Position numbers and translations under genes: made by a program
Notes under the pieces: generated by a model
What the model was told of the DNA's origin: nothing
Database searches by the model: none
Seen by the model: the letters and a program-made list of their open reading frames with translations, nothing else
Part shown: one piece after another, positions 25,349-63,462 of the stretch
How positions within the stretch are numbered: the stretch's first letter is position 1
How the letters are laid out: each line of letters starts with the position of its first letter
NCBI GenBank assembly: GCA_023391635.1
Contig: JAEWAQ010000058.1
Location: 89,429-153,428 of the forward strand
Direction: 5' to 3'
Length of the DNA stretch: 64,000 nucleotides
From: Bacillota bacterium
GTDB lineage: Bacteria; Bacillota; Bacilli; Paenibacillales; Paenibacillaceae

Positions 25349-25361
25349 GAGAGGGTCTATT

Positions 25362-25389: not shown

Positions 25390-25418
25390 CAATCGACAAT
25401 ATCAAGGGAGAGAATGAC

Positions 25419-26180: not shown

Positions 26181-26223
26181 TCGCTGCCAAGGCAAGCATG
26201 ATGAAGGCAAGGAGGGGACGACG

Positions 26224-29850: not shown

Positions 29851-30058
29851 GTCCAATCACCTGACTCCTTTAAATAGGGAGTTTGCAGGGCAAACTCTCA
29901 CCTCTCGTGCATTATTACGCTATTGTAACAAATCGAGCGGCATTTTGCGATTGGCTGTCGCAGCCTCTCGATGTTTACATCGTTCAATCATTATGTTATG
30001 TTTTGCTTTATAAAACCAATGTTTCCACTAATAAAACAAAGTGAAAGGGGCGCCTCAA

Positions 30059-31926: not shown

Positions 31927-32014
31927 AACGGAATATCGGAAGCGGAAACGGGAATGCGGGAAAACCGGATTCGGGTTGACAGAGCTCGTAGGGTAGAGTA
32001 CGTTATAGTCATAT

Positions 32015-32025
32015 TGGTAATACCA
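32015..32025 (+). promoter_or_regulatory. FadR/GntR-type palindromic operator, copy 1 (TGGTAATACCA)
   Basis: Perfect inverted repeat followed by TACTATTATTAA. It lies 33 nt downstream of TTGACA (31976-31981) and 206 nt upstream of the YesS-like gene. Confidence 0.6.
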
Positions 32026-40754: not shown

Positions 40755-40783
40755 TAGAAACGATGGAAGGAGGTGCAGCACGG

Positions 40784-41683: not shown

Positions 41684-41718
41684 GTTCGCGATGAGGAACG
41701 GGAAGGAGAGGGCCGTCC

Positions 41719-42597
41719 ATGCGCACGAAGGCTGGTCGCCGAAACAAAGGCATCGGTTGGTTCGACGGGTTCAACTATTCGTTATTGTTCGTGATTGCGC
41801 TCATCATGTTGTTTCCCTTTTTATACGTGCTTTCCATATCCGTATCGTCGTACAAGGATTATTTGCAGCACGGCTTCACGATCATCCCGAAATCGTTCGT
41901 TCTGGATGCGTACGAATACATTCTGGCCTCTCCGCGGTTCGTTCGCTCCTTGTTCGTGACGGCGGAAATCACGGTCATCGGGACATTGGTGAACCTGCTC
42001 TTCACCTCGACGTTCGCGTACATGCTCGCCCGTCCGATCGTCGGCCAACGCATCATGATGTTTCTGGTCGTGTTTACCTTGTTGTTCTCTGCCGGGATGA
42101 TTCCGACCTATCTCGTGGTGAAGGAGACGGGCCTGCTCAATTCGATCTGGGCACTCATCATTCCGGTCGCGATCAGCTCCTTCAACCTGGTCGTCATGCG
42201 CCAATTTTTCCTCCATATCCCGGAAGAGCTGAACGAAGCGGCCATCATCGACGGAGCGAACGATTTGCATATTTTCGCGAAGATCATCCTTCCGTTATCG
42301 AAACCGGCATTGGCCGCGTTCGGCTTATTCTATGCGGTCACGCATTGGAACAATTATTTCACGGGCATTTTGTATTTGAACGATCCGGCCGACTGGCCTA
42401 TACAGGTCATCCTCCGGCAGATCGTGATCGTGAACGAACCGCTGGCCGCGCTCAATATGCCCAGGGAATTCGCTCCGCCGGGGGAAACGGTGCAGATGGC
42501 CGCGACGCTGCTCGCCACGCTGCCGATCTTGATCGTCTATCCGTTTCTGCAAAAACATTTCGTCAAGGGGGTGATGCTGGGATCGGTCAAGGGATAA
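41719..42597 (+). CDS. LplC-type sugar ABC transporter permease
   Basis: GGAAGGAGAGG SD and the EAA loop (NEAAIIDGANDLHIFAKIILPL). Confidence 0.85.
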   Translation: MRTKAGRRNKGIGWFDGFNYSLLFVIALIMLFPFLYVLSISVSSYKDYLQHGFTIIPKSFVLDAYEYILASPRFVRSLFVTAEITVIGTLVNLLFTSTFAYMLARPIVGQRIMMFLVVFTLLFSAGMIPTYLVVKETGLLNSIWALIIPVAISSFNLVVMRQFFLHIPEELNEAAIIDGANDLHIFAKIILPLSKPALAAFGLFYAVTHWNNYFTGILYLNDPADWPIQVILRQIVIVNEPLAALNMPREFAPPGETVQMAATLLATLPILIVYPFLQKHFVKGVMLGSVKG

Positions 42598-42670
42598 GTC
42601 GTATTACAATGGGAACAGGGTGCAAGGCGATTTTTGCAAGGCCAATCAACTTCAGGAGGGGATTACGTCC

Positions 42671-44308: not shown

Positions 44309-44386
44309 CATCCGCGGGTTCAGACGCAGGAACGGCATGGTCAGGCGAAGTTCGATCACATTTTCCATTTGAACGAGGTGCTGAAC

Positions 44387-49980: not shown

Positions 49981-51147
49981 ATGTCTGACAAGACGGCCCA
50001 ACCGATTCATATTGAAATCATCGATACAGGCCTTATTTTCCGCAACCCGCTGCCGCACGTGTACGCCCGGCATGCCTATTTTCCTTCGGTGCTTCAATTG
50101 GCGAACGGCGAGATGCTGGCATCGTTTACCGTCGGCCAAGCTTTCGAATCCGCCGACCTGCATACGGAACTGGCGCGTTCTTTCGACCAAGGCGTCACGT
50201 GGGCGCATGAAGGCCGCCTCTATCCAGGCACGCCGGATAGGGCCACTTCGGATACGTGCCGGCTGTCGCATGGCGCTGATGGAGAAGTGATCGCCTACGT
50301 CATTCGCCACGACCGTTCGCGGCCGGATTGCGGCTTCGTCAACCCGGATAATCTCGGTTTCGTCGAAACTGAGCAGTTGCTATTCCGGTCGTCTGACGGG
50401 GGGCGCACATGGAGCGATCCGCAGACGATCAATCCGCCGCTCGTCGGCCCGGCATTCGAAATGACTTCTCCGATCGTACCGTTGAAGGGCGGCACCTGGC
50501 TATTGCCGACCTGCACCTGGAGGGGATTCGACGGCTATTGCCCGAATGGCATGAAGATGGTCGCGTTCCGTTCAGAAGACCAGGGCAGGACTTGGCCGGA
50601 TTACATCGACGTCATGGCGGACGCCAGGGATATCGATATTTTCTGGGAGTCCAAGATGGTCGAACTGGCCGACGGCAGAGTGCTGGCTGCAGCCTGGGTC
50701 TATGACCGGGAAGCGGGGAAGGATCGGGACAATCACTACGCCATCACCCGCGGGGCGGGCATCGACAGCCCGTTTACGGAACCGCGGTCATGCGGGTTGA
50801 AGGGGCAAACGCTGAATATCATGGAAATTGCGCCCGGCCGGGTGTTGACCGTCTATCGCCGAACGGATGTGCCGGGCTTATGGGCCAATATTTCCCGGAT
50901 CGAAGGCGATCAATCGGTGAACGAATCGGAGCATCCGCTATGGGGCAGCGGCCGCACGGGGCTGACCGCCCATTCGGGCAACATGGCCGCGGATTTCACC
51001 GCCTTGCAGTTCGGCGCTCCATCGCTGATCCGGATGCATTCGAATGAAATATTCGTTTGTTTCTGGGCGGTCGAGGGCGGAGTCGGCAACATTCGCTGGA
51101 TCAAGCTTCGCATGACGGAATCCGGGAGTGGCCCGTCGGATGCGTAA
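49981..51147 (+). CDS. leaderless sialidase-like (GH33-type) six-bladed BNR/Asp-box propeller protein
   Basis: Three Asp-boxes (SFDQGVTW, SSDGGRTW, SEDQGRTW) and an N-terminal FRNP resembling the (F/Y)RIP arginine motif. 388 aa with no signal peptide. Confidence 0.6.
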   Translation: MSDKTAQPIHIEIIDTGLIFRNPLPHVYARHAYFPSVLQLANGEMLASFTVGQAFESADLHTELARSFDQGVTWAHEGRLYPGTPDRATSDTCRLSHGADGEVIAYVIRHDRSRPDCGFVNPDNLGFVETEQLLFRSSDGGRTWSDPQTINPPLVGPAFEMTSPIVPLKGGTWLLPTCTWRGFDGYCPNGMKMVAFRSEDQGRTWPDYIDVMADARDIDIFWESKMVELADGRVLAAAWVYDREAGKDRDNHYAITRGAGIDSPFTEPRSCGLKGQTLNIMEIAPGRVLTVYRRTDVPGLWANISRIEGDQSVNESEHPLWGSGRTGLTAHSGNMAADFTALQFGAPSLIRMHSNEIFVCFWAVEGGVGNIRWIKLRMTESGSGPSDA

Positions 51148-51204
51148 AGAGCATGACGATAGCGGATATCGTTCGAGAAGCGGCCAAGGAAGGGTGGGTC
51201 GGTC

Positions 51205-51984
51205 ATGATCATGGAACGGTTTTCCCTGCGGGGCAAGACGGCGTTCGTCACCGGAGGCGCCGGGCTATACGGAAGGCAAATCGTCAGGGCTCTGCATGAA
51301 GCGGGCGCCACCGTATATACGACTTCACGCAATCGGGAACGGCTGCGCGTGGTCGAGGAAAGCTTCCGGGAAGAGAATGTTGCGGTCCGCGCGCTGGAAA
51401 TGGACCTCGGAGACGAACGCTCCGTATTGACGGCGATCGAGCAGGCGGCCGAAGAGAGCGGGAGTTTGGATATCCTCGTCAACAATGCCGTCGAGCGCAC
51501 GATGAACGGATGGAAGGATCCGGTCGTGCATTTCGCTCGCAGCATGGAAGTTAACGCGACGGGATTGTTTGCCGTGACGCGAGCGGCGGCTGATCGGATG
51601 GCGAAACAAGGCGGCGGTTCGATCGTGAACATCGGTTCGATTCAGGGGATGGTCGGGGTCGATCTCACCTTGTATGAGGGCTTGGACTGGAGCAGCAGCC
51701 TTCCCGACTACTTCTTTCACAAGGGCGGAATGATCAATTTCACCCGCTTTGTCGCGAGTTATTACGGCATGCGGTCCGTCCGATGCAACTGCGTCAGCCC
51801 TGGCGGCCTGCGGTCCGGAGACCCGGATGAGCGGTTCGTCCGCCGCTATGAAGAGCGCACGATGCTGGGCCGGATGGCGAACGACACGGATCTGATGGGC
51901 ATTATCGTATTTTTGGCTTCGGATGCATCATCCTACATTACGGCTGCGAACATCCCCGTGGATGGCGGGTATACGGCCAAATGA
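51205..51984 (+). CDS. SDR-family oxidoreductase
   Basis: TGGAGLYG cofactor loop and an NNAV motif, with classical SDR length. ATG 51211 is an alternative start. Confidence 0.8.
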   Translation: MIMERFSLRGKTAFVTGGAGLYGRQIVRALHEAGATVYTTSRNRERLRVVEESFREENVAVRALEMDLGDERSVLTAIEQAAEESGSLDILVNNAVERTMNGWKDPVVHFARSMEVNATGLFAVTRAAADRMAKQGGGSIVNIGSIQGMVGVDLTLYEGLDWSSSLPDYFFHKGGMINFTRFVASYYGMRSVRCNCVSPGGLRSGDPDERFVRRYEERTMLGRMANDTDLMGIIVFLASDASSYITAANIPVDGGYTAK

Positions 51985-52628
51985 ATGGAGGCGAGCCCGA
52001 TTTCATGATAGGAACGATGAGAAAGCTGCTCGACGGAGAGAAGGCGCTGATCGTATGTATTGGCGATTCGATTACGGAGCAGAACCGCCATCTGCATGGC
52101 CATCTGAACTATGTCGGAATGCTGGACGAGAAGTTAACGGGGAAATATCCCCATCGCGTGTTCGTGTTCAATACCGGGATCAGCGGGAATACGGCAGGGG
52201 ACGTCGCGGAACGTCTCGAACGGGATGCCCTGCGGTTCAAGCCGGACCTGGTCGTCGTCATGCTGGGCATGAACGACAGTACCAGGGGGATGGACGGGCT
52301 CCCGGCATTTCAACGGAACTTGGAGGCGATTGCAAGCCGGATCGCGGCATCGGGCAGCGAGGTGCTCCTGATGACGCAAAATCCGCTGAATTTCGATCTG
52401 CCGGACAACGTGAGGATGCGCGGCAGTTATCCGTTATACGTCGATGCGATCAGGGAGATCGCGGCATCCCGCGAGATTCCGCTTTGCGATGTTCACCTTG
52501 CCTGGGAAGCGCATTTGTCGGAATTTCCCCATGATCGCTGGGTGTGGATGAATGATGAAATTCACCCGAATGAACACGGCCATCGGTTTATGGCGCGGGT
52601 ATTGTTGGATTATTTGAGCCATGCGTAA
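51981..52628 (+). CDS. SGNH/GDSL-family hydrolase (esterase)
   Basis: ATGA overlap with the SDR stop. Block I VCIGDSITE, block III LGMNDS and block V DEIHPN. Confidence 0.8.
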   Translation: MNGGEPDFMIGTMRKLLDGEKALIVCIGDSITEQNRHLHGHLNYVGMLDEKLTGKYPHRVFVFNTGISGNTAGDVAERLERDALRFKPDLVVVMLGMNDSTRGMDGLPAFQRNLEAIASRIAASGSEVLLMTQNPLNFDLPDNVRMRGSYPLYVDAIREIAASREIPLCDVHLAWEAHLSEFPHDRWVWMNDEIHPNEHGHRFMARVLLDYLSHA

Positions 52629-52670
52629 ACGAGACTCCCGGTCCGCTGAACGCACAAGGAGAGGAATCCG

Positions 52671-53621
52671 ATGAAGAGAACGACTCTGTCGGGCAGGTCC
52701 ATCCCGCCGATGACGCTGGGCACGGCGCAGCTGTCCATGGAATACGGCATCGCCAACCGGAGCGGCAAACCCGCCATGGATGAAAGCTTCCGCATCGTCC
52801 GCACCGCACTGGAAAGCGGGATTACGTGCTTCGATACGGCCAAGATATATGGGGATTCAGAACGGATACTGGGCGAGTTTATGGCAGCCGAGCCGGTCTT
52901 GGCGAGTGACGCCACGATCGTCACGAAAATCAAATTGAGCCCGCAGGCACCACTAGCCGGCGAGGAGCTTCGCAGACAGGTGACCGCCGAAGTGGAAGAT
53001 TGTCTGTCCAGGCTGCGGATGGCGAAGCTCCCTCTCTTGCTGCTGCATCAACCGGAAGACCTGCGGGGCCGCGGCGAGGAGATGGCCCGCATCCTTCGCG
53101 GTTTGAAGCAGGACGGCTTGATCGAGGCGGCGGGCGTATCCCTGGATTCGAATTCAGACGAACAGTATGATGTTTTCTGGCCGTTTATTCGCGACGATTT
53201 GTACGAGGCGATTCAAATCCCGATTAATTTGCTGGATCAACGGTTGATCCATAACGGAGCGCTCCGCAGCTTTGCCGATAGGGGCAAGGTGGTGTTTGCT
53301 CGCAGCGTGTTTTTGCAGGGATTGTTTTTCCTGGATGACGATCGGCTGCCTGAGCGGATCCGGGATGCGGCCCGCAAGCCTTTGAGGATGATACGGGAAT
53401 TGGCGGAGCAGGAAGGCATGAGCATCGCCCAATTGGCGGTATCCTTCGTGCGCGATATGCCGGAGATCGGCAGTCTCGTCGTTGGCGCGGAAACAGTGGA
53501 GCAAATGCGGAACAACGCCGTGCTGATGAACGGTCCGTCAATCGGAGAGCGAGCGCGATCCATCATGCTGAACGCATTCAAGAAGGTGCCGCGACAAGTA
53601 TATGTGACGACAATGTGGTGA
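52671..53621 (+). CDS. aldo/keto reductase
   Basis: LGTAQLSMEYG, FDTAKIYGDSE, and a 316-aa length typical of AKRs. AAGGAGAGG SD. Confidence 0.8.
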   Translation: MKRTTLSGRSIPPMTLGTAQLSMEYGIANRSGKPAMDESFRIVRTALESGITCFDTAKIYGDSERILGEFMAAEPVLASDATIVTKIKLSPQAPLAGEELRRQVTAEVEDCLSRLRMAKLPLLLLHQPEDLRGRGEEMARILRGLKQDGLIEAAGVSLDSNSDEQYDVFWPFIRDDLYEAIQIPINLLDQRLIHNGALRSFADRGKVVFARSVFLQGLFFLDDDRLPERIRDAARKPLRMIRELAEQEGMSIAQLAVSFVRDMPEIGSLVVGAETVEQMRNNAVLMNGPSIGERARSIMLNAFKKVPRQVYVTTMW

Positions 53622-53704
53622 TGCTTAGCCCGGAATTTATTCAAACTGCGGCCTGTTTAATCGGTTTGACATCGTTCGGACAGAGGAGTAATGTAGATTT
53701 AACA

Positions 53705-53715
53705 TGGTTTTACCA
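53705..53715 (+). promoter_or_regulatory. FadR/GntR-type palindromic operator, copy 3 (TGGTTTTACCA)
   Basis: Followed by TACTATTATTAA, identical to copy 1. It lies 33 nt downstream of TTGACA (53666-53671; TTGACA-17-TAATGT) and 90 nt upstream of the first FadR-type gene. Confidence 0.6.
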
Positions 53716-53794: not shown

Positions 53795-54454
53795 ATGAAG
53801 GCGATTCGCAAGTCTACGCTTGTCGAGCAAGCCGGCGAGGCGATCAAGAGACATATCGAGCAGCATCGGCTGCGCCCGGGCCAGAAGCTGCCGTCCGAGA
53901 GGGAATGGGTCGAATCGCTGCAAGTGAGCCGGACCGCCGTACGCGAAGCTTTGAAATCGCTGGAACTCGTCGGCGTCGTTCGCCTGAAACCCGGAGACGG
54001 CATCTACGTCAGCGACCCAAGTTTACGGCATATTACTCGGCACGTAACCTTTCAATGGAAGACCGACAAGCGGAAGCTGAAGGAGCTTCTCGAAATCCGC
54101 AAAATATTGGAGCTTGGCGCCGTGGAGCTGGCCGTGGGCCATCGGGATTCCGAAGCCATCGGGGATATGGCGCGCTGGGTGGAGCGGATGGAGGCCAAAG
54201 TGAAAAAGCGGTTGCCGGCCGTGGAGGAAGATTTGGCTTTTCACCGCGCCTTGTTCCGGGCGACCGGCAATGAGACGATGCTGCAATTCAGCGAGATGCT
54301 GGCCGAATTTTTCCCGGAGTCGCATGAGGAGCCTTGCACCGAGACGACGCTGAACGAGCATCGGGAAATTTACGATCGATTGAAGCAAGGCGACGCGCCG
54401 GGAGCGAGACGGGTATTGGAGGCGCACCTCGATTCGCTGAAGACGACCTTATAG
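53795..54454 (+). CDS. GntR-family regulator, FadR subfamily (wHTH + FCD)
   Basis: ATG 53795 follows TGGAGGA. LPSEREWVESLQVSRTAVREALKSLELVGVVRLKPGDGIYV and an all-helical FCD-like C-terminal domain. Confidence 0.85.
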   Translation: MKAIRKSTLVEQAGEAIKRHIEQHRLRPGQKLPSEREWVESLQVSRTAVREALKSLELVGVVRLKPGDGIYVSDPSLRHITRHVTFQWKTDKRKLKELLEIRKILELGAVELAVGHRDSEAIGDMARWVERMEAKVKKRLPAVEEDLAFHRALFRATGNETMLQFSEMLAEFFPESHEEPCTETTLNEHREIYDRLKQGDAPGARRVLEAHLDSLKTTL

Positions 54455-54467: not shown

Positions 54468-55166
54468 ATGATGCTAGCGGAACACAACCTGGATCGTAAA
54501 ATGTTAAGTCAAATCGCCAGCGACCAATTGAAACAATTTATCGCTGACAACCGGTTGAAGCCCGGAGACCAGCTGCCGACGGAACGGGAGCTTGCCGAAC
54601 GGATGCAAGTCAGTCGGCCGGTCGTCCGCGAGGCGCTGAACCGGTTGGAGACACTGCAGTTGATCGTCAAAGTTCAGGGTAAAGGCATCTTCGTGGCCGA
54701 GCAAAATTTGCATACGTTCTTCGAACAGATCGTGACCTTCTGGGATTCGGCGGATATGGGGATGGAGAAACTGCTTGCTTTCCGGCTCATGCTAGAGCAA
54801 GCGGCCATGGAGGAAATCGCCGAACAAGCCGTGCCCGAAGATTACGGCAGGCTGGAAGCCATGGTGAAGGCTTCGGCCGAGCCCGCGATTGACGAAGGGA
54901 CGTTCGTGCGAATGGATGCCGACTTCCACGCCGAGTTGATCCGCTTGACCGGCAACGAGCTGTTCCACCAGCTGTCGTCCACCGTTGCGCGTTATTTCGC
55001 CATGCTGCAGCTCCGGCTGCCGTCGGAAGAAGCGAAATCCGGAGCCGACCGGGCCAGGACGATCGCCGATCATCGCAAGCTCATCGGCTTGCTGTCCGCC
55101 AAGCAGGTGAAGGATGCCAAGCAGTTATTGAAGGAGCATCTGCTGGACACGGGAACGCTCACCTGA
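54468..55166 (+). CDS. GntR-family regulator, FadR subfamily (second tandem paralogue)
   Basis: LPTERELAERMQVSRPVVREALNRLETLQLIVKVQGKGIFV and an FCD-like C-terminal domain. Confidence 0.85.
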   Translation: MMLAEHNLDRKMLSQIASDQLKQFIADNRLKPGDQLPTERELAERMQVSRPVVREALNRLETLQLIVKVQGKGIFVAEQNLHTFFEQIVTFWDSADMGMEKLLAFRLMLEQAAMEEIAEQAVPEDYGRLEAMVKASAEPAIDEGTFVRMDADFHAELIRLTGNELFHQLSSTVARYFAMLQLRLPSEEAKSGADRARTIADHRKLIGLLSAKQVKDAKQLLKEHLLDTGTLT

Positions 55167-55178: not shown

Positions 55179-55198
55179 GACGAAACGGATGTTTCGTC
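55179..55198 (+). terminator. hairpin after the second FadR-type gene (GACGAAAC-GGAT-GTTTCGTC)
   Basis: 8-bp perfect stem and 4-nt loop, followed by an AT-rich stretch but only a weak U-tract. Confidence 0.45.
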
Positions 55199-55206
55199 AT
55201 TAAAAT

Positions 55207-55217
55207 TGGTATTACCA
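55207..55217 (+). promoter_or_regulatory. FadR/GntR-type palindromic operator, copy 4 (TGGTATTACCA)
   Basis: Followed by TACTATGTATTG. It lies 60 nt upstream of the ThrC-like gene. Confidence 0.6.
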
Positions 55218-55266: not shown

Positions 55267-56388
55267 ATGAGAGAGTTCCTGACGGCCGTAAACCGGCAGA
55301 AAGAGGGCATATGGCGATATGCCGACCTCTTGCCCGAAGTGGGGACGGAGCACCAGATCACGATGGGCGAAGGCGGAACGCCGCTTATCGCCAGCCGCCG
55401 CATCGCCGCCGAGCTGGGTCTGTCCTCACTGTATTTCAAGCTGGAGGGCAGCAATCCGACGGGTTCGTACAAGGACCGTATCTCGGCATTGGGGGTTTCC
55501 CGGGCGCTGCAACGGGGCAGGGTAGGCTGCATCGGTACCTCTTCCGGCAATGCGGGAGCGTCCGCAGCCGCCTATGCGGCCAGGGCGGGATTGCCGTATG
55601 CGCTGCTGGTGCTCGAACAGATCGCAGAGACGAAATTGATGCAGGCGGCCTTGCATGATGCGCAGATCATCAAAGTCAAAGGGTTCGGGACAAGCGCCGA
55701 AGTCGGCGACCGTGTGTTCCGCTTCATCGAGGAACAAGCGGAAAGCCTGGATCGGGAAGTGATGATTACCGCTTTCCGCTATAATCCCGTTGCGATGGAA
55801 GCCGTCAAGACGATTGCGTTCGAGCTGCTGGAGAAATTCGGAGAGAAGCTGCCGGATGCCGTTTTCGCGCCGGTCGGGGGCGGTGGATTGTTTACGGGGA
55901 TATGGAAAGGCTTCAAGGAGCTTCACGACCGTCAATGGATCGGCCGGATGCCCTTGATGGCGGCGGTCCAGTCGGAGGGCTGCTCCAACATTGCGCGTGC
56001 ATGGCAAGCTGGGGATGACCGGCCTGCGCCGGGGGATTCGACGTCAGGGATTTCCGGGCTGCAGGTGCCAAATCCGCCGGATGGGGAGTTGGTGCTGAAG
56101 GGGTTGAAGGAAGATGGCGGTTTCGCGGTAGCGGTGTCCGACGAAGAAGCGTGGGCATGGCAGGAACGGCTTGCGGCCGAGGAAGGAATCTGGTGCGAAC
56201 CGGCTGCAGCCGTCTCGTTGGCCGGAGTGAAGCGGGCTTTGGACGAAGGCAGGCTGACGCCGGGAGGAAGTGCGGTGTGCATTCTGACCGGCGCCGGCTA
56301 TAAAGACGTTCAGAGAGGGCAGGCCATGCTGCGGGCCAAGTCGGAAATTCCGCTGCTCGGCATGGACGAACTGATATCGACTTTGTAG
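55267..56388 (+). CDS. threonine-synthase-family (short type) PLP-dependent enzyme
   Basis: FKLEGSNPTGSYKDR (PLP lysine), GTSSGNAGASAAAYAARAG, and the GGGGL phosphate loop. Confidence 0.75.
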   Translation: MREFLTAVNRQKEGIWRYADLLPEVGTEHQITMGEGGTPLIASRRIAAELGLSSLYFKLEGSNPTGSYKDRISALGVSRALQRGRVGCIGTSSGNAGASAAAYAARAGLPYALLVLEQIAETKLMQAALHDAQIIKVKGFGTSAEVGDRVFRFIEEQAESLDREVMITAFRYNPVAMEAVKTIAFELLEKFGEKLPDAVFAPVGGGGLFTGIWKGFKELHDRQWIGRMPLMAAVQSEGCSNIARAWQAGDDRPAPGDSTSGISGLQVPNPPDGELVLKGLKEDGGFAVAVSDEEAWAWQERLAAEEGIWCEPAAAVSLAGVKRALDEGRLTPGGSAVCILTGAGYKDVQRGQAMLRAKSEIPLLGMDELISTL

Positions 56389-56405
56389 GAGAGGGGGCAT
56401 GGGCC

Positions 56406-57395
56406 GTGAAGAGGATAAAAGCCGGGTTGATCGGTCTCGGCCGCTTTGCCGAGCTGCATCTGCGGTGTCTGGATCAAATCGTGGACGTAGAGGTTGCGGC
56501 CGTTTGCGACGTCGACGCGGAGAGGGCGGATCGGGTTGCCCGCGCACGCGGCTGTAACTTTTATACCGATTGGAATCGAATGCTGGAACGGGAATCGCTC
56601 GACGCGATCCACGTCTTGACGCCGGAACACGCGCATGTCGAGCCGGCTGTTGCGGCGTTAAGAGACGGCTGCAGCGTCTTCGTGGAGAAGCCGCTCGCGC
56701 TTGACGTCGCTGGCGCCTGCCATATTCGGGACGTGGCGGGCGCCAGCGACGGCCTGCTTATGGTCGGCCACGTCTGCCGGTTCGACGTCCGTTATGCCCT
56801 GGCGATGGACGCTATCCGGCAAGGGAAGCTCGGGGCCGTGCGCTCCCTCTATGCCCGCCGGAACAATATGAATAAGTTTTTTCCGCTGTACCGCCGCACT
56901 CACCCCTTCTTCACGCTTGGCATTCACGATATCGATTTGTTCCGCTGGTTCACGAGCTCGAACGTAACGGAAGTGTACGCCCGGTCGGGGAAAGACGCGA
57001 ACGGGCATACCGACCTGGTCTGGGCGATGCTGAAATTCGAGAACGGAGTGATCGGTGTCGTGGAGAACCATTGGCTCCTGCCGGACGGAGCCCCTGCTTT
57101 CATGGATTCGGCCATGGAAATCGTGGGGGATGGCGGCATCTATCAGCTGCGCGAGCCCGATCAATCCGCCGTGCTGTGGAGCCGGAGCGAGACATTGGCG
57201 CCTCCGTTGTTCTCTTCGGGTGAACTGCACGGGAAGCTGACCGGGCCGCTGCTTGAGGAACTGCGTCATTTCTACGATTGCGTCGAACGCAACGCCGCAT
57301 CGGACATTTTGCTGCCGGATGACGCGGTGAAAGCGGTGGAAGTGGCGGAAGCTGTCGTCTGCTCCTGCGAGATCGGGCAGCCGGTGGTGCTCTAG
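56406..57395 (+). CDS. Gfo/Idh/MocA-family oxidoreductase
   Basis: GTG 56406 follows GGAGAGGGGG. KAGLIGLGRFAELH Rossmann loop and the VFVEKPLA motif. Confidence 0.8.
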   Translation: MKRIKAGLIGLGRFAELHLRCLDQIVDVEVAAVCDVDAERADRVARARGCNFYTDWNRMLERESLDAIHVLTPEHAHVEPAVAALRDGCSVFVEKPLALDVAGACHIRDVAGASDGLLMVGHVCRFDVRYALAMDAIRQGKLGAVRSLYARRNNMNKFFPLYRRTHPFFTLGIHDIDLFRWFTSSNVTEVYARSGKDANGHTDLVWAMLKFENGVIGVVENHWLLPDGAPAFMDSAMEIVGDGGIYQLREPDQSAVLWSRSETLAPPLFSSGELHGKLTGPLLEELRHFYDCVERNAASDILLPDDAVKAVEVAEAVVCSCEIGQPVVL

Positions 57396-57424
57396 CCTCG
57401 GCCGGAGACAAGGAGGGGATGGCC

Positions 57425-58159
57425 ATGAAGCTCGGCGAACGGATCTGTCTCGTCGGCAGCGGAGCGCTCGGCATGAACTTGACCAACGAATACGACTGCA
57501 ACGTGTATCTGCTCGATACCGGCGACGGCTTCGTCCTCGTAGATTGCGGTTCCGGCCTGGAATCGGAGCGCATACTCGGCGAGATTCGCCGGGACGGCAT
57601 CGATCCGGCCGGTATTACCCACATCGTCGTCACCCACGCGCACGCCGACCATGCCGGCGGTGCAGCGGGCCTGAGCCGTTCGACCGGCGCCGCCATCGTC
57701 TGCTCGCCGCAGACGGCCGCTATTCTCGGGAGCGGGGATGAGGCGGCGATCTATTTGCCGGAGAGCCGCAGGGCGGGTCTCTATCCGGAGGATTACCGGC
57801 TGGAGAGCTGTGTTCCCACGCTGACCGTCTCGCACCTGGAAGAGATGAAAGCGGGGGAGATCACCTTGCAATTCATCAGCGCGCCGGGGCACAGCGACGA
57901 TATGATTTGCTGTTACGTGAAGCAATGGCAGGCGTTGTTCTGCAGCGATCTGGTTTTCCATGGCGGCAGGATCGCGATGCTGCCAACGCCGGAGTTCTCC
58001 CTCTACCGGCTGTCGCAAAGCGTGCGGATATTGGCGGAGTACGCCATCGAAGGGTTGTACCCGGGACATTTGTCGCCTGTACGGACAGGCGGGGATCAAG
58101 TCGTCCGCAAGGTGAACGCGACCTTCGAATCCTTGAGAATCCCGCCGAATATCGTGTAA
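57425..58159 (+). CDS. MBL-fold metallo-hydrolase
   Basis: HAHADHAGG (HxHxDH) motif. AGGAGG at 57411 favours ATG 57425 over 57419. Confidence 0.8.
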   Translation: MKLGERICLVGSGALGMNLTNEYDCNVYLLDTGDGFVLVDCGSGLESERILGEIRRDGIDPAGITHIVVTHAHADHAGGAAGLSRSTGAAIVCSPQTAAILGSGDEAAIYLPESRRAGLYPEDYRLESCVPTLTVSHLEEMKAGEITLQFISAPGHSDDMICCYVKQWQALFCSDLVFHGGRIAMLPTPEFSLYRLSQSVRILAEYAIEGLYPGHLSPVRTGGDQVVRKVNATFESLRIPPNIV

Positions 58160-58188
58160 TTCAAACATGCTTGCGGAGGCAGGATCAG

Positions 58189-59199
58189 ATGACGAACATT
58201 CGACAGATATGCGCAGAACAATTCGATTACCGCAGCATGGCTGCGGGCAGCAAAGCCCATTACCTCGTCCGCTTCAGCGATGACGAACCGGACGCGGGCG
58301 CGATCCCCGCCGTCGTGGTCAAGGGGGAGCGGGAAGGCCCGACGCTGCTCGTGCTGGCCGCCGTCCACGGGGACGAGTATGAAGGCGTACGGGCGCTGAT
58401 CGAGCTGCTGCGTGCGATCAAGCCGAACGACGTGCTCGGCACGCTGGTCGCGGTTCCGATCGCCAATAAGTCCGCATATGCGAACGGTACGCGGGAATCC
58501 GCGGCGGACGGGTTGAATTTGGCCAGGGCATTTCCGGGCGACCCTCAGGGGACGTACACAAGGAAGCTGGCCTGGACGCTGAGGGAAAAGTTTATTTCGC
58601 GCGCCGATTTTTTATTGGATTTGCATAGCGGCGGAACGCACTATGCCATGCCTCCGCTTGTCGGGTATTACCACGATCCCGATAGCGAAGCGGGAAGGCG
58701 ATCCCGGACGGCGGCGGAAGCATTCGGAATGAACACCATCTGGGGACATTCCGTCATCGCGCCGGGAAGAACGATCAGCGCGGCGCAGGAACTCGGCATT
58801 CCCTGGCTGTATACGGAAGGATACGGCGGCCAGCGCATTCGCGAGGACGAACTGCGTTTGTACTACGACGGCGTGCTTCGTCTCTTGCAGCATTTGAACA
58901 TGTTGGCCGAGCCGCAGCGCTGGCTGAGCGCCCCGTTCGCGGGAGCGACGCACCGTTATTTGGGAGACGGTAATTTGGACCGATCGGCGACAGCCCGGTT
59001 GGACGGTTTCTTTGTGCCCGCTGTCCGTTTCCTGCAACAGGTGGAGGCGGGCGAGCGGATCGGAGGCATTTACGATTGTTATGGCCAGGAGCAGCAGTCC
59101 GTCATCAGCGAGCATGCGGGGCATGTCATGATGCTGAGAGAAGTTCCTTATACCCGCAAAGGCGATCCGCTGTATGTCCTTGCTACGGCTCGCCTATAG
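58189..59199 (+). CDS. succinylglutamate desuccinylase/aspartoacylase-family (M14-like) zinc deacylase
   Basis: ATG 58189 follows GGAGGCAGG. AAVHGDEYEG zinc motif, plus DLHSGG and AFPG motifs. Confidence 0.75.
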   Translation: MTNIRQICAEQFDYRSMAAGSKAHYLVRFSDDEPDAGAIPAVVVKGEREGPTLLVLAAVHGDEYEGVRALIELLRAIKPNDVLGTLVAVPIANKSAYANGTRESAADGLNLARAFPGDPQGTYTRKLAWTLREKFISRADFLLDLHSGGTHYAMPPLVGYYHDPDSEAGRRSRTAAEAFGMNTIWGHSVIAPGRTISAAQELGIPWLYTEGYGGQRIREDELRLYYDGVLRLLQHLNMLAEPQRWLSAPFAGATHRYLGDGNLDRSATARLDGFFVPAVRFLQQVEAGERIGGIYDCYGQEQQSVISEHAGHVMMLREVPYTRKGDPLYVLATARL

Positions 59200-59263
59200 G
59201 CGAAGTCCGGACCTGTTGTCGCTAGCGGGCGACTAGAATCATAACGATAAGGATGGGATAACC

Positions 59264-60157
59264 ATGAGAGCAGGATTTTACACGGCGTTGGGAACACCTC
59301 TGGACGACAACGGGGATTTCGTAGTTGCAAGCTTTCATATGCACGTGGAGGACCAAGTTGGCGCAGGAGCTTCAGGGCTCTTGGTGATGGGGTCCATGGG
59401 ACAGCAGGCGTCCGTGAAAAACAGCGAATTCGTGAAGATCGCCCGCACAGGGGTGGAAGCGGCGAAGGGAAGAAGCCCGGTATTCGCAGGAGTTATGGAT
59501 AATAGCTTCAGCCGGGTGATGGAACGGATTCGCGGCTTGGAAGGTTTGAAGCTGGATGGCGTCGTAGCCACCATGCCCTATTATTTCAAATTAAATCAGT
59601 CCGAGGCGCTGCGGTTTTTCACCGCGACCGCGCAAGCGTCTCCCTTTCCTGTATACCTGTACGATTTGCCGTCCGTCACGCAAACGAGGATCGAGCCCGC
59701 GACGTTGCTGGAACTCATGAAAGTGCCCAACATCGCCGGGATCAAGACCAATGACCTGAATCTGTCGCGAATGCTGCAGAAGGCGCATTTGCCGCCGGCC
59801 GCACCGGCGGATGGCGATTTCCAGCTCATGTTTAGCGGGCTGGACGTATTCGACATTGCCTACGGGTACGGCATCACCAAGCAGTTGGACGGCATGTTCG
59901 CTTGCACGGCTCCACTGACGAAGCGGCTATATGCTGCCCTGTCTTCCGCTCATCGAGAGGAGGCGGCTCAGATCTTGAACGATATCGTGAGGCTGCGGGA
60001 TCAACTGGTCGCCGTCGGCGTGTTCCCGGGATTCTCCCATGCGATGAACCTGCTCGGATTCAAAGGCAACTTCGCCCCCGATTATGCGGGCGTTCTGGAT
60101 GCGCAAGCCAAGGAAGCCGTAAGAGCTTGCATGCAGCAAATCGGATTGATCGATTAA
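59264..60157 (+). CDS. DapA/NanA-family class I aldolase (dihydrodipicolinate synthase family)
   Basis: YTALGTPLDDNG, VYLYDLPSVT (Tyr motif) and IAGIKTND (Schiff-base Lys context). The usual G(S/T)TGE reads GSMGQ here. Confidence 0.75.
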   Translation: MRAGFYTALGTPLDDNGDFVVASFHMHVEDQVGAGASGLLVMGSMGQQASVKNSEFVKIARTGVEAAKGRSPVFAGVMDNSFSRVMERIRGLEGLKLDGVVATMPYYFKLNQSEALRFFTATAQASPFPVYLYDLPSVTQTRIEPATLLELMKVPNIAGIKTNDLNLSRMLQKAHLPPAAPADGDFQLMFSGLDVFDIAYGYGITKQLDGMFACTAPLTKRLYAALSSAHREEAAQILNDIVRLRDQLVAVGVFPGFSHAMNLLGFKGNFAPDYAGVLDAQAKEAVRACMQQIGLID

Positions 60158-60261
60158 GCGAATCGGAACCATTCACGAGCTCCAGGAGCGGCAGCGTTGT
60201 CGTTTGCCCTCGATAGAGGTATGATGTCATCAGTAACGTTATGGAAATGAGGACATCGACA

Positions 60262-61323
60262 ATGGGCAAACCTTCTATATATGGAGTAACCGTCGATCGC
60301 CTTGCAGCATGGATGGCGGAACACGGGCACAAGAAATCCCGCGCGGCGCGCGTGTGGGAAGAATTGTACAGGGAGCGGACGACGGAGTTTGCGGAAATGA
60401 AAAGCGTTCGCGAGGAAGTCCGGGGGCTTCTGGCGGGGCATTGGCGGCTTGAGACGATGAGCGAGCATACGAAGCAGGAATCCGCCGATGGCACGGTCAA
60501 GTTTCTGTTTCGGCTGCAGGACGGCAATCTGATCGAAACCGTGCTCATGCGGCACAAGTTCGGTTTGTCCGTATGCGTGACGACGCAGGTGGGATGCAAT
60601 ATCGGCTGCAGCTTCTGCGCCAGCGGGCTGCGCGCCAAGAGCCGCGACCTCTCCGCGGGAGAGATCGTGGAGCAGATCATGCGGGTTCAGCTGTTCCTGG
60701 ATCAGACGGGCAGGGGTGAGCGCGTTACCCATATCGTCGTGATGGGCATCGGGGAGCCGTTCGACAATTATGCGAATCTGCTGGACTTCCTCGCGGTAGT
60801 GAAGCATGCGAAGGGGCTCGCGATCGGCCCGCGGCATATTACGGTGTCGACCAGCGGCCTCGCAGGCAAGATCGAAGAGTTCGCCGACGACGATCCGGGC
60901 GTCAACCTCGCGATCTCGCTGCATGCGCCGAACAACGAGCTGCGTACACGGATCATGAAGATCAACCGCGCCATTCCGATCGAGCGGCTCATGCAGGCGC
61001 TGGATTACTATCTGACCAAGCTCAAGCGGCGGGTAACGTTGGAATACATCATGCTGCGGGACGTAAACGACCGACCGGAGCATGCGGCGGAGCTGGCCGA
61101 TCTGATCGGCGATAGGGGCTCGCTCATCCAAGTGAACCTGATCCCGTACAATCCGGTGGACGAACATAGCCAGTACGGCCGGAGCCGGCAGGAGGCGATC
61201 GATGCCTTCTTCGACACGTTGAAGAAGCGGGACGTCCGCGTTAGCGTACGAGTAGAGCACGGCGCGGACATTGACGCCGCATGCGGGCAGCTGCGCAGCA
61301 AACAGCTCGCGGCCGGAGGTTGA
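60262..61323 (+). CDS. rlmN: 23S rRNA/tRNA adenine-C2 methyltransferase RlmN (radical SAM)
   Basis: KPSIYG N-terminus, GTVKFLFRLQDGNLIETVLMRH, VTTQVGCNIGCSFCASG (CxxxCxxC), VVMGIGEPFDNY and DIDAACGQL. By recall it is collinear with Bacillus RlmN. ATG 60262 follows GAGGA. Confidence 0.85.
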   Translation: MGKPSIYGVTVDRLAAWMAEHGHKKSRAARVWEELYRERTTEFAEMKSVREEVRGLLAGHWRLETMSEHTKQESADGTVKFLFRLQDGNLIETVLMRHKFGLSVCVTTQVGCNIGCSFCASGLRAKSRDLSAGEIVEQIMRVQLFLDQTGRGERVTHIVVMGIGEPFDNYANLLDFLAVVKHAKGLAIGPRHITVSTSGLAGKIEEFADDDPGVNLAISLHAPNNELRTRIMKINRAIPIERLMQALDYYLTKLKRRVTLEYIMLRDVNDRPEHAAELADLIGDRGSLIQVNLIPYNPVDEHSQYGRSRQEAIDAFFDTLKKRDVRVSVRVEHGADIDAACGQLRSKQLAAGG

Positions 61324-61406
61324 TCGCAAGCATTGGGTACAGCTACAGAACCCGATTGATGCAAGCCAGAGAAGACATCTTTGGCAATGCCGAAGGGCGC
61401 GGGGTT

Positions 61407-62798
61407 CTATCGCAGAGGCAAGCGCACTTCGAACGTCGTGCCGGCGCCGGGATGGCTGTCGACGCGGATCGTGCCGTTCACGGCATCGACAAGGCTCCGC
61501 GCGATCGCAAGCCCGAGGCCGTGTCCGGCGATCGACCGCAGTCTGGCTTGATCCTGACGGTAGAAGCGGTCGAAAATACGCGGCAAATCTTCGGGCGCGA
61601 TGCCGACACCGTTGTCTTGCACCGTCAGGACGATGTGGCGGGAACGCCGCTGTGCCGCTTCGGACAACGTGACCCGGACGCGCCCCTGCTCCGGCGTATA
61701 TTTCAACGCATTTTCTGCAAGGAGCACAATCAGTTGCTTCAGCCGCTCCTTGTCCCCCTGCACGATCCAGTCGGCCGGCGCGTCGATGCGCAAGTCAATG
61801 CGCTTGTCCCGCGCCATCTCCTGCAAAGGCTGAACGGCTGCCTCCGCGACATCCGATACGTTGAACGACTCGTTATGCAAAGCCATCGTGCCAGTCTCCG
61901 CGCGCGCCAGACTTAATAAGCCGACAATCATCTTCGTCATCGACGCGACTTCTGCCCGCATCCCCTCGATTGTGCGCTTGATGAAGGACAGCTCCGGGTC
62001 GGCGATACGCTCTTCCATTTGCAGCGCGTCCAGCGATGTCTGCAGCACCGCCAGCGGCGTGCGCAGCTCATGGGAAGCATCTGCGGCGAATTGCCGTTGG
62101 CGATCGTAGGACAGCGCAGCCTGCCTGATCGCCCGGCCGGACAAATAATGGCTCAGCCATAGCACCAATGCGAAGAACACGCCCGCCAGTACGACCAGAA
62201 GCCGGAGTAAATCGCGCAATAATCGCTGCTGTTCGCTCACTTGCTTGCCGATGTACAATTCCCCGATCACATCGCCCTGCCACATCAAGCGTCGACCCGT
62301 CATCAGGAACTCCGCTTGCTCATTGCTCACCGCACGCTCCTGTCCGATTGACGCCGGTTCGTCGTAAGTGGCCAAGCTGGCGCCGACAATCTTGTCTGTT
62401 TCCGTCAATACGTTGTTATTGCTAATCAATGCTAACGCCTGCGAGCGCAGCTCCGGCTGCAGCTCGTCGCCGAAGCGCAGCGCTCCGTCCATGAACAAGT
62501 AATAGAACGACTGGTCGGCACTGATGGCGAATGCGTCCTCCACCGTCTTCGGAGGCAGCCGCTTCGGATATTGCTCCTCGTCGATCCATTGCTGCAAAAT
62601 CCTCGCTTCCCGATCCGCGAGCCCGCGCAGCGACGCGTGTTGCCCGTTCCATATCCAGGCGTGAAGCAGCCCGTACACCACGACGATGAACATGCCGAGA
62701 AACAGCATCAACAGGCCGCTGTACTGCAACGTCAAGCGTCGGCGCATCCGCACGAATACATCCGGCAGCATGCGCGAGGGAGCGGGAGCGCTAATCAT
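61407..62798 (-). CDS. sensor histidine kinase (TM-sensor-TM, HAMP, HisKA, HATPase_c)
   Basis: FAADASHELRTPLAVL H-box and the VQDNGVGIAPEDLPRIFDRFYR and GHGLGLAIA ATPase boxes. Confidence 0.85.
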   Translation of the reverse strand: MISAPAPSRMLPDVFVRMRRRLTLQYSGLLMLFLGMFIVVVYGLLHAWIWNGQHASLRGLADREARILQQWIDEEQYPKRLPPKTVEDAFAISADQSFYYLFMDGALRFGDELQPELRSQALALISNNNVLTETDKIVGASLATYDEPASIGQERAVSNEQAEFLMTGRRLMWQGDVIGELYIGKQVSEQQRLLRDLLRLLVVLAGVFFALVLWLSHYLSGRAIRQAALSYDRQRQFAADASHELRTPLAVLQTSLDALQMEERIADPELSFIKRTIEGMRAEVASMTKMIVGLLSLARAETGTMALHNESFNVSDVAEAAVQPLQEMARDKRIDLRIDAPADWIVQGDKERLKQLIVLLAENALKYTPEQGRVRVTLSEAAQRRSRHIVLTVQDNGVGIAPEDLPRIFDRFYRQDQARLRSIAGHGLGLAIARSLVDAVNGTIRVDSHPGAGTTFEVRLPLR

Positions 62799-63462
62799 CG
62801 ATTTTGTAGCCTACCCCTCTGACACTGCGGATGACGTGCTGAGCGTCGATGTCCTTCAGCTTCTTGCGGATCAGCTTCACGATCGCATCGATCGACTTCA
62901 GATGTACGTCCGCCTCCAGGCCCCATACGCGATCGAGCAAGATCTCTCGCGTCAGGGTGCGCCCCTTGTTTTGCATAAGCAAATCCAGCACGCCAAACTC
63001 GCGCGGCGTCAACTGCACCGCTGTTCCGTCACGAATGACCTCCTGATTCGTCCGCTGCAGCTGCCACTGGCGATAGTGCACGGTCTCATCCTGCAGGGGC
63101 GCAAAGTTGCGGCGCTGCATCGTTCGCAGCCTGGCGAGCAGTTCCTCGACGGCATACGGCTTTACGACGTAATCGTCGGCTCCCGCATCCAGCCCGCGCA
63201 CGCGATCGGTCACGGCGTCCTTGGCGGTCAGCATCAGGATCGCTCCCCGATATCCGTTGCGGCGCAGCTCAAGGCAGGTCGTGCAGCCGTCGCCGTCCGG
63301 CATCATCCAGTCCAGGATGAGGACATCATAGGCGGAAGCCTGTGCGTAGTCGAACGCTTCCCGGCCTGTGGTGACCCAGTCCACGATCGCTCCTGTTTTG
63401 CGCAACACATGCGCCGTCAATTCTCCCAACCGAAGGTCGTCTTCGGCAAGCAATACTTTCAT
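62791..63462 (-). CDS. OmpR-family response regulator
   Basis: MKVLLAEDD, DVLILDWMMP and VKP receiver motifs, with a winged-helix C-terminus (LTPREFGVLDLLM...RGVGYKI). Overlaps the kinase start by 8 nt. Confidence 0.9.
   Translation of the reverse strand: MKVLLAEDDLRLGELTAHVLRKTGAIVDWVTTGREAFDYAQASAYDVLILDWMMPDGDGCTTCLELRRNGYRGAILMLTAKDAVTDRVRGLDAGADDYVVKPYAVEELLARLRTMQRRNFAPLQDETVHYRQWQLQRTNQEVIRDGTAVQLTPREFGVLDLLMQNKGRTLTREILLDRVWGLEADVHLKSIDAIVKLIRKKLKDIDAQHVIRSVRGVGYKIDD

Follow-up and report, generated by a model that had tools for sequence, protein, structure and literature searches.

What compound would a cell process with a threonine synthase-like enzyme, a dehydrogenase, a metallo-hydrolase, a zinc deacylase and a pyruvate aldolase encoded side by side? 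The question is raised by five adjacent genes, here called the block, at positions 55267 to 60157 of a 64,000-nucleotide stretch of DNA from a member of the Paenibacillaceae (Bacillota bacterium, assembly GCA_023391635.1, contig JAEWAQ010000058.1, positions 89,429 to 153,428), to which we refer as the window. We hypothesize that the block encodes the core of a catabolic route for N-acyl-2-amino-2-deoxy sugars, oxidative and non-phosphorylative, that is wired into the use of sialic-acid-like (nonulosonic) sugars. This hypothesis is drawn from sequence comparison and could prove right or wrong with about equal ease. An earlier sequence-only reading did not recognise the combination as a described pathway, and we likewise found no description of it in the searchable open literature. 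Publications on N-acetylmannosaminate and mannosaminate catabolism, on glucosaminate lyase with threonine synthase, on the catabolism of pseudaminic and legionaminic acids and on Paenibacillus sialic-acid clusters gave no account of the block.

All five genes lie on the plus strand. The first (55267-56388) encodes a fold-type II pyridoxal phosphate (PLP) enzyme of the ThrC family with 373 amino acids (aa) and a PALP match of 240 bits in Pfam. It is followed by a Gfo/Idh/MocA-type NAD(P) oxidoreductase of 329 aa with a GTG start (56406-57395; Pfam scores of 83 bits for the N-terminal domain and of 63 and 41 bits for C-terminal domains), a hydrolase of the metallo-beta-lactamase (MBL) fold with the motif HAHADH (57419 or 57425 to 58159; Lactamase_B, 92 bits), a zinc deacylase of the AstE/AspA family of 336 aa (58189-59199; AstE_AspA_cat, PF24827, 99 bits) and a divergent class I pyruvate aldolase of the DHDPS/NanA family of 297 aa, DapAw (59264-60157; DHDPS, 108 bits). 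The Pfam matches bear out the five families named in the sequence-only reading, and the motifs that it listed, GSYKDR, HAHADH, HGDEYEG, DLHSGG and GSMGQ, are all found in the translations. In NCBIfam release 20 the block proteins reach no specific equivalog cutoff, with the sole exception of the ThrC-like protein against the old thrC model TIGR00260.

The intergenic gaps measure 17, 23 or 29, 29 and 64 nt, the second depending on the start of the MBL gene. Its second ATG, at 57425, has the better Shine-Dalgarno spacing and is the more likely start on that ground; it gives the 29-nt gap that the series of 17, 29, 29 and 64 nt reported earlier requires. Each of the five genes is preceded by a GGAG-type ribosome-binding site, and terminator-like matches within the block are not in excess (10 compared to 10.7 in shuffled sequences). 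This arrangement makes co-transcription of the block plausible.

At E <= 1e-10 we found 627 homologues of the AstE-type protein, most of them from Paenibacillus. Twenty of these were aligned, and the alignment was used to fetch 80 genomic loci with 10-kb flanks, cited below by their L numbers. The loci were recovered by the AstE protein alone, and the context seen is about 10 kb around the block. They were analysed by tblastn with the window proteins and by our own calling and clustering of open reading frames (ORFs), with Pfam and NCBIfam labels placed on the cluster representatives.

The order ThrC-Gfo-MBL-AstE is kept in about 23 of 25 Paenibacillaceae/Bacillus loci, a degree of conservation that, by this count, is far beyond chance. 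A short-chain dehydrogenase/reductase (SDR) takes the place of Gfo in L001, L003 and in other phyla. In Acidobacteriota and Chloroflexota the ThrC-like and AstE genes are still linked, with an SDR standing in for Gfo, and their partners there are SDR, MBL, M81, class III aminotransferase, RidA, BNR_2 and aldolases of the HpcH/HpaI or DHDPS type. The fifth gene is less constant: a NanA-like gene directly follows AstE in 12 related loci, the divergent type of the window is present in 6 (L005, L007, L008, L018, L022 and L025, with 53-57 % identity) and neither is found in 7. The two aldolase types occur together in no locus. The five genes had been put forward as one unit; what is conserved as a unit is the four-gene core, while the aldolase varies.

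The sequence-only reading guessed at the dismantling of an N-acylated amino-(sugar-)acid akin to the N-acyl ulosonic acids, and the context of the block in relatives, with a NanA-like lyase, a CBM32 and BNR_2 sialidase, YhcH/NanQ and NanY, fits this guess. The NanA-like genes of the related loci are 34-38 % identical to E. coli NanA; they score 250.9 with the NanA model (PRK04147, cutoff 281) and keep the GSTGE carboxylate site, Tyr137, Lys165 and the sugar-binding pair Asp191-Glu192. The next gene in L004, L011, L012, L023 and L024 encodes a 1192-aa protein with CBM32, NedA-like and BNR_2 regions, an architecture typical of a secreted sialidase. Genes for YhcH/NanQ, a Neu5Ac (N-acetylneuraminic acid) anomerase (PMC8141875; also E. 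coli annotation), are present in L004, L023, L024 and L025. True NanY/YjhC orthologues with 44-45 % identity are found as separate genes in L001, L011 and L012, and in many loci the block is flanked by sugar ABC importers of the CUT1 type. A small BNR_2 protein of L022 and L025, two loci of the window type, has PDB matches only to sialidases.

For comparison, an E. coli NanK query gave zero matches and a NanE query one match (L002) in 81 loci, each covering about 10 kb around the block. Five loci (L004, L011, L012, L023 and L024) have the features of a nan locus except NanK and NanE. Judged from gene content, the four-gene core holds the position that NanK and NanE (then NagA and NagB) have in ordinary nan loci. 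Of the nan-type features the window itself shows only regulators similar to NanR, a BNR_2 protein with weak matches, an SGNH esterase and an ABC importer.

We looked at whether the first enzyme of the block is a threonine synthase (EC 4.2.3.1). Threonine synthase is the family to which it has the highest overall similarity, with best PDB matches at E values of 1e-48 to 1e-54. It shares the fold with threonine synthases, and the PLP-lysine motif GSYKDR is present and kept in all 39 homologues. The TIGR00260 cutoff is passed (179.6 for a cutoff of 167.1), while PRK08197 (248 for 303), PRK05638, PRK08329, PRK06450 and PRK06381 are missed. Three motifs of four solved threonine synthases are changed, STGNT to SSGNA, NPxRxEGQKT to NPVAMEAVKT and GNAGN to GGGGL, and these substitutions are kept in all 39 ThrC-like neighbours of AstE. 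The Arg of the second motif corresponds to Arg160 of the Thermus enzyme, which binds the substrate phosphate together with neighbouring residues, and GGGGL is the loop that holds the PLP phosphate in Ser/Thr dehydratases. Among the nearest 50 %-identity clusters, drawn from 1.84 billion representatives, nine of the first 14 carry Ala in the column of this Arg, and canonical motifs appear only deeper in the list.

Because three shared motifs are altered, including the phosphate-site Arg, we consider that the ThrC-like protein is a member of the family other than threonine synthase, one suited by its motifs to a non-phosphorylated substrate. Its tetraglycine loop resembles that of Ser/Thr dehydratases. 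The loss of the three motifs, the conservation of these changes throughout the clade and the catabolic operon context led us to reject a housekeeping threonine synthase. Three sets of partner genes fit an elimination or deamination step. RidA genes co-occur with ThrC-like and AstE genes (the window copy lies at 30041-30454). Pyruvate aldolases for 2-keto-3-deoxy acids also co-occur, of HpcH/HpaI types similar to GarL and KDR aldolase and of DHDPS types. Lastly, a fold-III PLP enzyme with Ala_racemase_N and D-ser_dehydrat domains, of the type known as OngC, adjoins AstE in 5 loci, replacing ThrC in L010, L056 and L079 and standing alongside it in L037 and L042. We propose that the ThrC-like protein would act as a hexosaminate ammonia-lyase/dehydratase yielding a 2-keto-3-deoxy acid.

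The zinc ligands and catalytic Glu expected of an AstE/AspA deacylase are present as H60, E63, H146 and E210, a correspondence to ASPA residues that we assume, and the residues invariant over 20 homologues include H60, E63, H146, N110, R113 and E210. The only NCBIfam match of this protein is to the N-acetyl-L-2,4-diaminobutyrate deacetylase DoeB, at 116.8 for a cutoff of 402.7, and its PDB matches include 3cdx and DoeB itself (6twl). We did not retain DoeB as its identity given this score, and the labels of the gene clusters that recur in the loci included no gene of the M24/DoeA type. AstE, ASPA and DoeB act on N-acyl-L-amino acids. The role proposed here is that of an N-acetyl-hexosaminate deacetylase.

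The Gfo/Idh/MocA protein has three Pfam domains and misses all NCBIfam equivalog cutoffs. An identity as the 2,7-anhydro-Neu5Ac oxidoreductase NanY/YjhC/NanOx was rejected: the window protein is 22 % identical to E. coli NanY over 255 aa, block Gfo proteins as a group reach only 22-29 % and the true orthologues are separate genes in the same loci. A lactone-forming N-acyl-hexosamine 1-dehydrogenase is our proposal for this enzyme. The MBL protein scores 73.5 with the subclass B3 beta-lactamase model (cutoff 240) and matches the AidB lactonase model at 1e-11. HAHADH is present and the score lies under the cutoff, so we treat it as a superfamily member only and not as a subclass B3 metallo-beta-lactamase; we propose that it may be the lactonase opening an N-acyl-hexosaminolactone. 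PDB sequence searches with the five block proteins plus the SDR and BNR proteins returned generic relatives and gave no substrate-level clue for Gfo, MBL or SDR.

The aldolase of the window keeps the Schiff-base Lys and the catalytic Tyr, equivalent to NanA Lys165 and Tyr137, has Met in place of Thr48 and GSMGQ in place of GSTGE, and has lost Glu192. It misses every NCBIfam cutoff, scoring 101.8 with TIGR00674 (DapA, cutoff 206) and 63.9 with PRK04147 (NanA, cutoff 281). DHDPS uses Arg138 to bind aspartate semialdehyde, and direct reading of the sequence places a Val at this position (YNVPSRT in E. coli, YDLPSVT in the window). On residues and model scores we rejected both 4-hydroxy-tetrahydrodipicolinate synthase (DapA) and N-acetylneuraminate lyase (NanA) for the fifth gene. 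The altered sugar-binding residues suggest a substrate other than Neu5Ac.

Taken together, we propose the following sequence of reactions. In the first step the Gfo enzyme (or the SDR) would oxidise C1 of an N-acyl-hexosamine to the lactone, the model substrate being N-acetylmannosamine (ManNAc), the product of sialate lyase. This corresponds to the known reaction of N-acyl-D-mannosamine 1-dehydrogenase (EC 1.1.1.233), which forms the lactone. The MBL protein would then open the lactone to an N-acetyl-hexosaminate, which is chemically an N-acetyl alpha-amino acid, and the AstE/AspA-type zinc amidase would strip the acetyl group to leave the hexosaminate. In the fourth step the ThrC-like enzyme would eliminate the 3-hydroxyl and the amino group, giving ammonia and a 2-keto-3-deoxy acid (2-keto-3-deoxygluconate, KDG, in the case of ManNAc), and RidA may aid the hydrolysis of the imine. 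A manno sugar gives the L configuration at C2, in keeping with two of the families, whose characterised members use derivatives of L-amino acids. The sequence-only reading gave the chemistries without an order; the order dehydrogenase, lactonase, deacetylase, PLP lyase is one that we infer here.

The aldolase would act at one end of this route. At the entry it would split an ulosonic acid into pyruvate and an N-acyl-hexosamine; at the exit it would split the 2-keto-3-deoxy acid into pyruvate and an aldehyde. In L025 the window-type aldolase adjoins YhcH and no NanA-like gene is found there. We slightly favour the entry role of an ulosonic acid lyase over that of a 2-keto-3-deoxy acid aldolase because the window type and the NanA-like gene are mutually exclusive and because of this neighbourhood with YhcH. 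The exact sugar used by the window is uncertain; the window has no NanA, NanQ or NanY orthologues and its aldolase is divergent.

Several points weigh against the proposed route. All steps are assigned from protein family, gene context and chemical logic. No member of the ThrC family is known to us to dehydrate sugar acids, sugar lactonases of the MBL fold are to our knowledge uncommon, and the closest PDB structures of Gfo and MBL are uninformative. The window lacks a NanA-, NanQ- or NanY-type gene and a clear sialidase (it has the weak BNR_2 protein only), and its aldolase is without the Glu192 and Thr48 of NanA. Seven related loci have the four-gene core and no aldolase or sialic-acid gene within 10 kb. 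The absence of NanK and NanE concerns these same surroundings of about 10 kb and not whole genomes. Finally, M81, the class III aminotransferase and the Cys/Met-type PLP gene of L001 would be superfluous for a simple conversion of ManNAc to KDG.

The closest parallel in logic is the Ong pathway of Pseudoalteromonas, in which GlcNAc1A (N-acetyl-D-glucosaminate) is converted by OngB and OngC, with OngD/RidA, to KDG, which is then taken by KdgK (PMC9537276, PMC12017989). The steps from N-acetyl-D-glucosaminate to KDG have been described as 'akin to D-amino acid catabolism' and are carried out by a D-aminoacylase and a PLP deaminase together with a RidA protein (PMC9537276, PMC12017989). As proposed for the block, an N-acetyl-hexosaminate is treated as an N-acetyl amino acid, deacetylated without phosphorylation and deaminated by a PLP enzyme with RidA to a 2-keto-3-deoxy acid, and the OngC-type gene beside AstE-type genes in five related loci is a further likeness. 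However, OngB is a D-aminoacylase of the amidohydrolase type and OngC a fold-III deaminase, in contrast to the AstE/AspA-type and fold-II ThrC-like enzymes of the block. The Ong pathway also starts from an extracellular acid made by lytic polysaccharide monooxygenase, has no dehydrogenase or lactonase and ends with a kinase; the implied stereochemistry is D rather than the L of the block, and the genomic context is chitin rather than sialic acid. According to Pfam the window block contains neither the OngB-type nor the OngC-type family, and we rejected its identity with the Ong pathway.

Canonical sialic-acid catabolism (NanA-NanK-NanE-NagA-NagB, and NanL-NanE-RokA in Bacteroides) resembles the loci of relatives in the sialidase, NanA-like, YhcH/NanQ and NanY genes, the NanR-like GntR regulators and the sugar importers. 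It differs in that NanK is missing from these loci, NanE is found in one of the 81 and ThrC-Gfo-MBL-AstE stands beside nanA; the route proposed for the block would be oxidative and non-phosphorylative and would end in KDG instead of fructose-6-phosphate, and the window is without a NanA orthologue. The Weimberg/Dahms, non-phosphorylative Entner-Doudoroff and L-rhamnose/L-fucose diketo-hydrolase routes share the logic of dehydrogenase, lactonase, 2-keto-3-deoxy acid and pyruvate aldolase, and use the same aldolase families, DHDPS-type (YjhH/YagE) and HpcH/HpaI-type. The block differs from them in a substrate with a C2 acetamido group, for which a deacetylase and a PLP lyase replace the sugar-acid dehydratase. 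On the features tested, the block appears to lie outside Ong, Nan, Doe/Eut, DapA and threonine synthase. We propose that it is a hybrid that joins non-phosphorylative sugar oxidation to the Ong-like logic of deacetylation and deamination, in a nan-type locus.

Other readings of the same genes deserve to be weighed. A module of RidA, M81 and a class III (HemL-like) aminotransferase accompanies ThrC-like and AstE genes across phyla (L002, L003, L008, L011, L012, L029, L037, L038, L043, L048, L058 and L078), and in L003 its genes and those for ThrC, MBL, SDR and AstE make up a single tight operon. The window carries RidA and M81, and no aminotransferase was found in it. In Paenibacillus agricola (L001, 55-12804) an eleven-gene run has the order unknown, NanY, Gfo, Cys/Met-type PLP, NanA-like, aminotransferase, RidA, ThrC-like, MBL, SDR and AstE; it contains three different PLP enzymes in one operon and is followed after a gap of about 560 nt by a cytochrome P450 gene. 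Sulfatases with an N-sulphoglucosamine sulphohydrolase C-terminal domain lie near the AstE-type gene in L029, L048, L050 and L064 (Chloroflexota and Acidobacteriota metagenome-assembled genomes, MAGs), a further hint that the gene set handles amino sugars.

The RidA-M81-aminotransferase module and the Cys/Met-type PLP gene of L001 imply that the true substrates could include di-N-acyl nonulosonic acids. There is a small but appreciable chance that the wider set, comprising ThrC-like, AstE, Gfo or SDR, MBL, M81, class III aminotransferase, RidA and a DHDPS- or HpcH-type aldolase, serves the catabolism of bacterial di-N-acyl nonulosonic acids of the legionaminic or pseudaminic type. A lyase would then yield pyruvate and a 2,4-diacetamido-2,4,6-trideoxy-hexose, and oxidation and lactone opening would give the acid. 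AstE and M81 would remove the two N-acyl groups, the ThrC-like enzyme would eliminate the C2 amine, the aminotransferase would take the C4 amine, and a final aldolase would release pyruvate and a C3 fragment. The divergent aldolase of the window would be the lyase for a sugar other than Neu5Ac.

It is unlikely that the block trims modified sialic acids before the lyase, with the products entering an ordinary Nan pathway encoded elsewhere. In such a scheme sialic acids in anhydro or unsaturated form would be the substrates of Gfo, as they are of NanOx/NanY, the MBL protein would open sialic-acid lactones and the AstE-type enzyme would remove unusual N-acyl groups. The position of the block within the sialic-acid loci of relatives is consistent with trimming, as are an SGNH esterase among the neighbours and the fact that NanY/NanOx is itself a Gfo/Idh/MocA enzyme (E. 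coli annotation). However, the NanY orthologues (44-45 %) are separate genes of the same loci and the block Gfo is only distantly similar to NanY, and NanK and NanE are not nearby. A fold-II PLP enzyme furthermore requires an alpha-amino acid, which no sialic acid derivative offers, and RidA and the replacement by an OngC-type enzyme indicate elimination or deamination.

Catabolism of an N-acetylated diamino or hydroxy amino acid in the manner of ectoine strikes us as improbable. It would use the MBL protein or M81 as ring or amide hydrolase, followed by a DoeB-like AstE, a DoeD-like aminotransferase and an EutB-like PLP dehydratase. Ectoine and hydroxyectoine degradation (DoeA, DoeB, DoeC, DoeD; EutB) does have an AstE-family deacetylase in DoeB, a fold-II PLP dehydratase in EutB and a class III aminotransferase in DoeD. 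The AstE-type protein moreover has DoeB as its sole NCBIfam match and as one of its PDB matches; genes for RidA and a class III aminotransferase often adjoin, and some loci have transporters of the Opp/Dpp type. The block nevertheless scores far under the equivalog cutoffs, both for DoeB and with the EutB models, which give only 42-52 bits. Neither a DoeA/M24 hydrolase nor an Ehu or TRAP transporter is present, an aminotransferase is missing from the window, and transport, regulation and surroundings differ: in Paenibacillaceae the context is one of sugar ABC importers, sialidases, NanA, NanQ and NanY. An ectoine-type pathway was rejected as the principal explanation on these low scores and the sugar context.

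We also regard as quite improbable the breakdown of glyco-amino acids or glycopeptides, where M81 and AstE (M14-like) would trim the peptide, the ThrC-like enzyme would beta-eliminate an O-glycan or phosphate from Ser or Thr, and Gfo and MBL would process the sugar. Families of peptidase clans (M81, the AstE fold) and Opp-type transporters do occur in related loci, the elimination of a leaving group is within ThrC-family chemistry, and glycan-degrading genes adjoin. Yet M81 lies outside the block and many loci lack it, such a pathway would have no need of YhcH and a NanA-like lyase next to it, and the phosphate-site motif of threonine synthase is lost. A biosynthetic cassette for an N-acyl amino-sugar acid or non-proteinogenic amino acid, with the aldolase and ThrC-like enzyme run synthetically, recalls the classically biosynthetic DHDPS/NanA and ThrC families and the P450 at the end of the L001 operon but is very improbable, as the FadR-type GntR repressors, ABC importers, secreted sialidases, esterases and RidA are catabolic hallmarks and the block is without glycosyltransferase, nucleotidyltransferase or export genes.

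How would an oxidative amino-sugar route of this kind be controlled? Two genes with GntR and FCD domains lie directly upstream of the block on the plus strand (53798-54454 and 54468-55166); both have the NanR subfamily as best NCBIfam match, at 121.5 and 115 respectively for a cutoff of 260. The pair is syntenic with the block and precedes it in most loci. In Paenibacillus sp. MBLB4367 the arrangement GntR-GntR-PALP-Gfo-MBL-DHDPS-AstE is isolated amid unrelated genes. From this synteny we conclude that the GntR/FCD pair belongs to the block unit, and the statement in the sequence-only reading that the genes have no regulator of their own is wrong. That the operon is transporter-less holds for the five genes themselves and fails for their context, where many relatives have CUT1-type importers with the same operator on the flanks of the block. 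The window has its own ABC importer with this operator type, at 40667-44308.

The palindromic GntR/FadR-type operator that had been called copy 4 was found as TTGGTATTACCA at 55206-55217, 49 nt upstream of the ThrC-like gene. Further copies are located at 53704-53715 upstream of the first GntR/FCD regulator, at 49919 (copy 2) before an operon of BNR_2, SDR, SGNH and AKR genes, and at 32014-32025 (copy 1) upstream of an AraC/dCache regulator gene. The palindrome TTGGTA(A/T)TACCA at these four sites accounts for 8 strand-matches compared to 1.35 expected, a number not attained in any of 100 shuffles. In ten loci (L004, L005, L008, L011, L012, L018, L022, L023, L024 and L025) a palindrome of this type stands before ThrC, GntR, solute-binding protein, SDR and sialidase genes. 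In the window, copies 1 to 3 tie the region from 32 to 60 kb into one regulon. We propose that the GntR/FCD repressor pair would control the block via the TTGGTAnTACCA operator, the same operator controlling the upstream glycan-uptake genes. Between the regulators and the block, a hairpin, GACGAAAC-GGAT-GTTTCGTC (55179-55198, plus strand), follows the stop codon of the second regulator gene; sequence and fold reveal no strong T-run, and it may be a weak terminator parting the regulator genes from the block.

The operon behind operator copy 2 (49981-53621, plus strand) encodes, according to Pfam, a BNR_2 protein of the sialidase fold, an SDR, an SGNH esterase and an aldo/keto reductase, and all four recur beside the block in other loci. 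The BNR_2 protein of the window has weak PDB matches only (5hx0 at 5e-7 and the sialidase 7lbu at 5e-5). Other members of the regulon region, apart from the ABC importer, are genes for an enolase-like protein, for two further Gfo proteins, for an FG-GAP repeat protein of 924 aa and for a surface protein of 1795 aa. The FG-GAP protein (37980-40754) is 62 % identical to one of Cohnella fermenti that adjoins NanA-like and YhcH genes (L024, 15505-18300) and shares 30 % identity with another that adjoins the block in a MAG of the Acidobacteriota (L043, 1260-4118); on these matches it may be a glycan-active protein, as yet uncharacterised, that is tied to the pathway. The recognised domains of the surface protein (44369-49756) are C-terminal Big_2/Invasin only, and its segment at about 47450-48613 resembles 500-aa proteins with a weak GH18 match that are encoded directly 5' of the ThrC-like gene in L006 and L013.

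Upstream of the regulon region, the plus-strand RidA gene scores 108.9 in NCBIfam, above the cutoff of 106.25, and is followed by an M81/MlrC-like metallopeptidase (30451-31926, plus strand; Pfam M81; MlrC, 180 for a cutoff of 999). A second gene of the threonine synthase family, of the long form with Thr_synth_N, PALP and THR4_C (470 aa), lies at 28444-29856 on the minus strand, in divergent orientation immediately before the RidA-M81 pair, and could be either the housekeeping thrC or a further paralogue. A separate, catabolic-looking cluster at 22305-28241 contains an FGGY sugar kinase, a GntR/UTRA regulator, an SDR, a SIS-domain protein, FAD_oxidored (PF12831) and a creatininase-family amidohydrolase, and is preceded by an ABC importer (18403-22165). 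Downstream of the block, the 60241-63462 region holds a plus-strand ORF that by translation alone reads like the radical-SAM rRNA methyltransferase RlmN (CxxxCxxC) and, on the minus strand and by the same criterion, a pair made up of a histidine kinase and a response regulator. Between the block and the RlmN-like ORF, a promoter-like site (60197-60225) suggests that the block transcript need not run into that ORF.

A 2026 preprint names two routes, the only ones cited as known, for the use of ManNAc freed from sialic acids, NanA-NanK-NanE and NanL-NanE-RokA (PMC13228529). If our hypothesis is true, the block would add a third, oxidative and phosphorylation-free branch, in which a Gfo dehydrogenase and an MBL lactonase would be combined with an aspartoacylase-like deacetylase and a threonine-synthase-like lyase. 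A clade widely mis-annotated as 'threonine synthase' and a clade of the AstE/AspA family would thereby gain a function, and the branch would widen the Ong principle of treating a sugar acid as an amino acid from D- to L-configured acids. The enzymes would be candidates for making or detecting hexosaminic acids and KDG. Such a branch would also help to explain how soil Paenibacillaceae, Acidobacteriota and Chloroflexota use microbial sialic-acid-like sugars.

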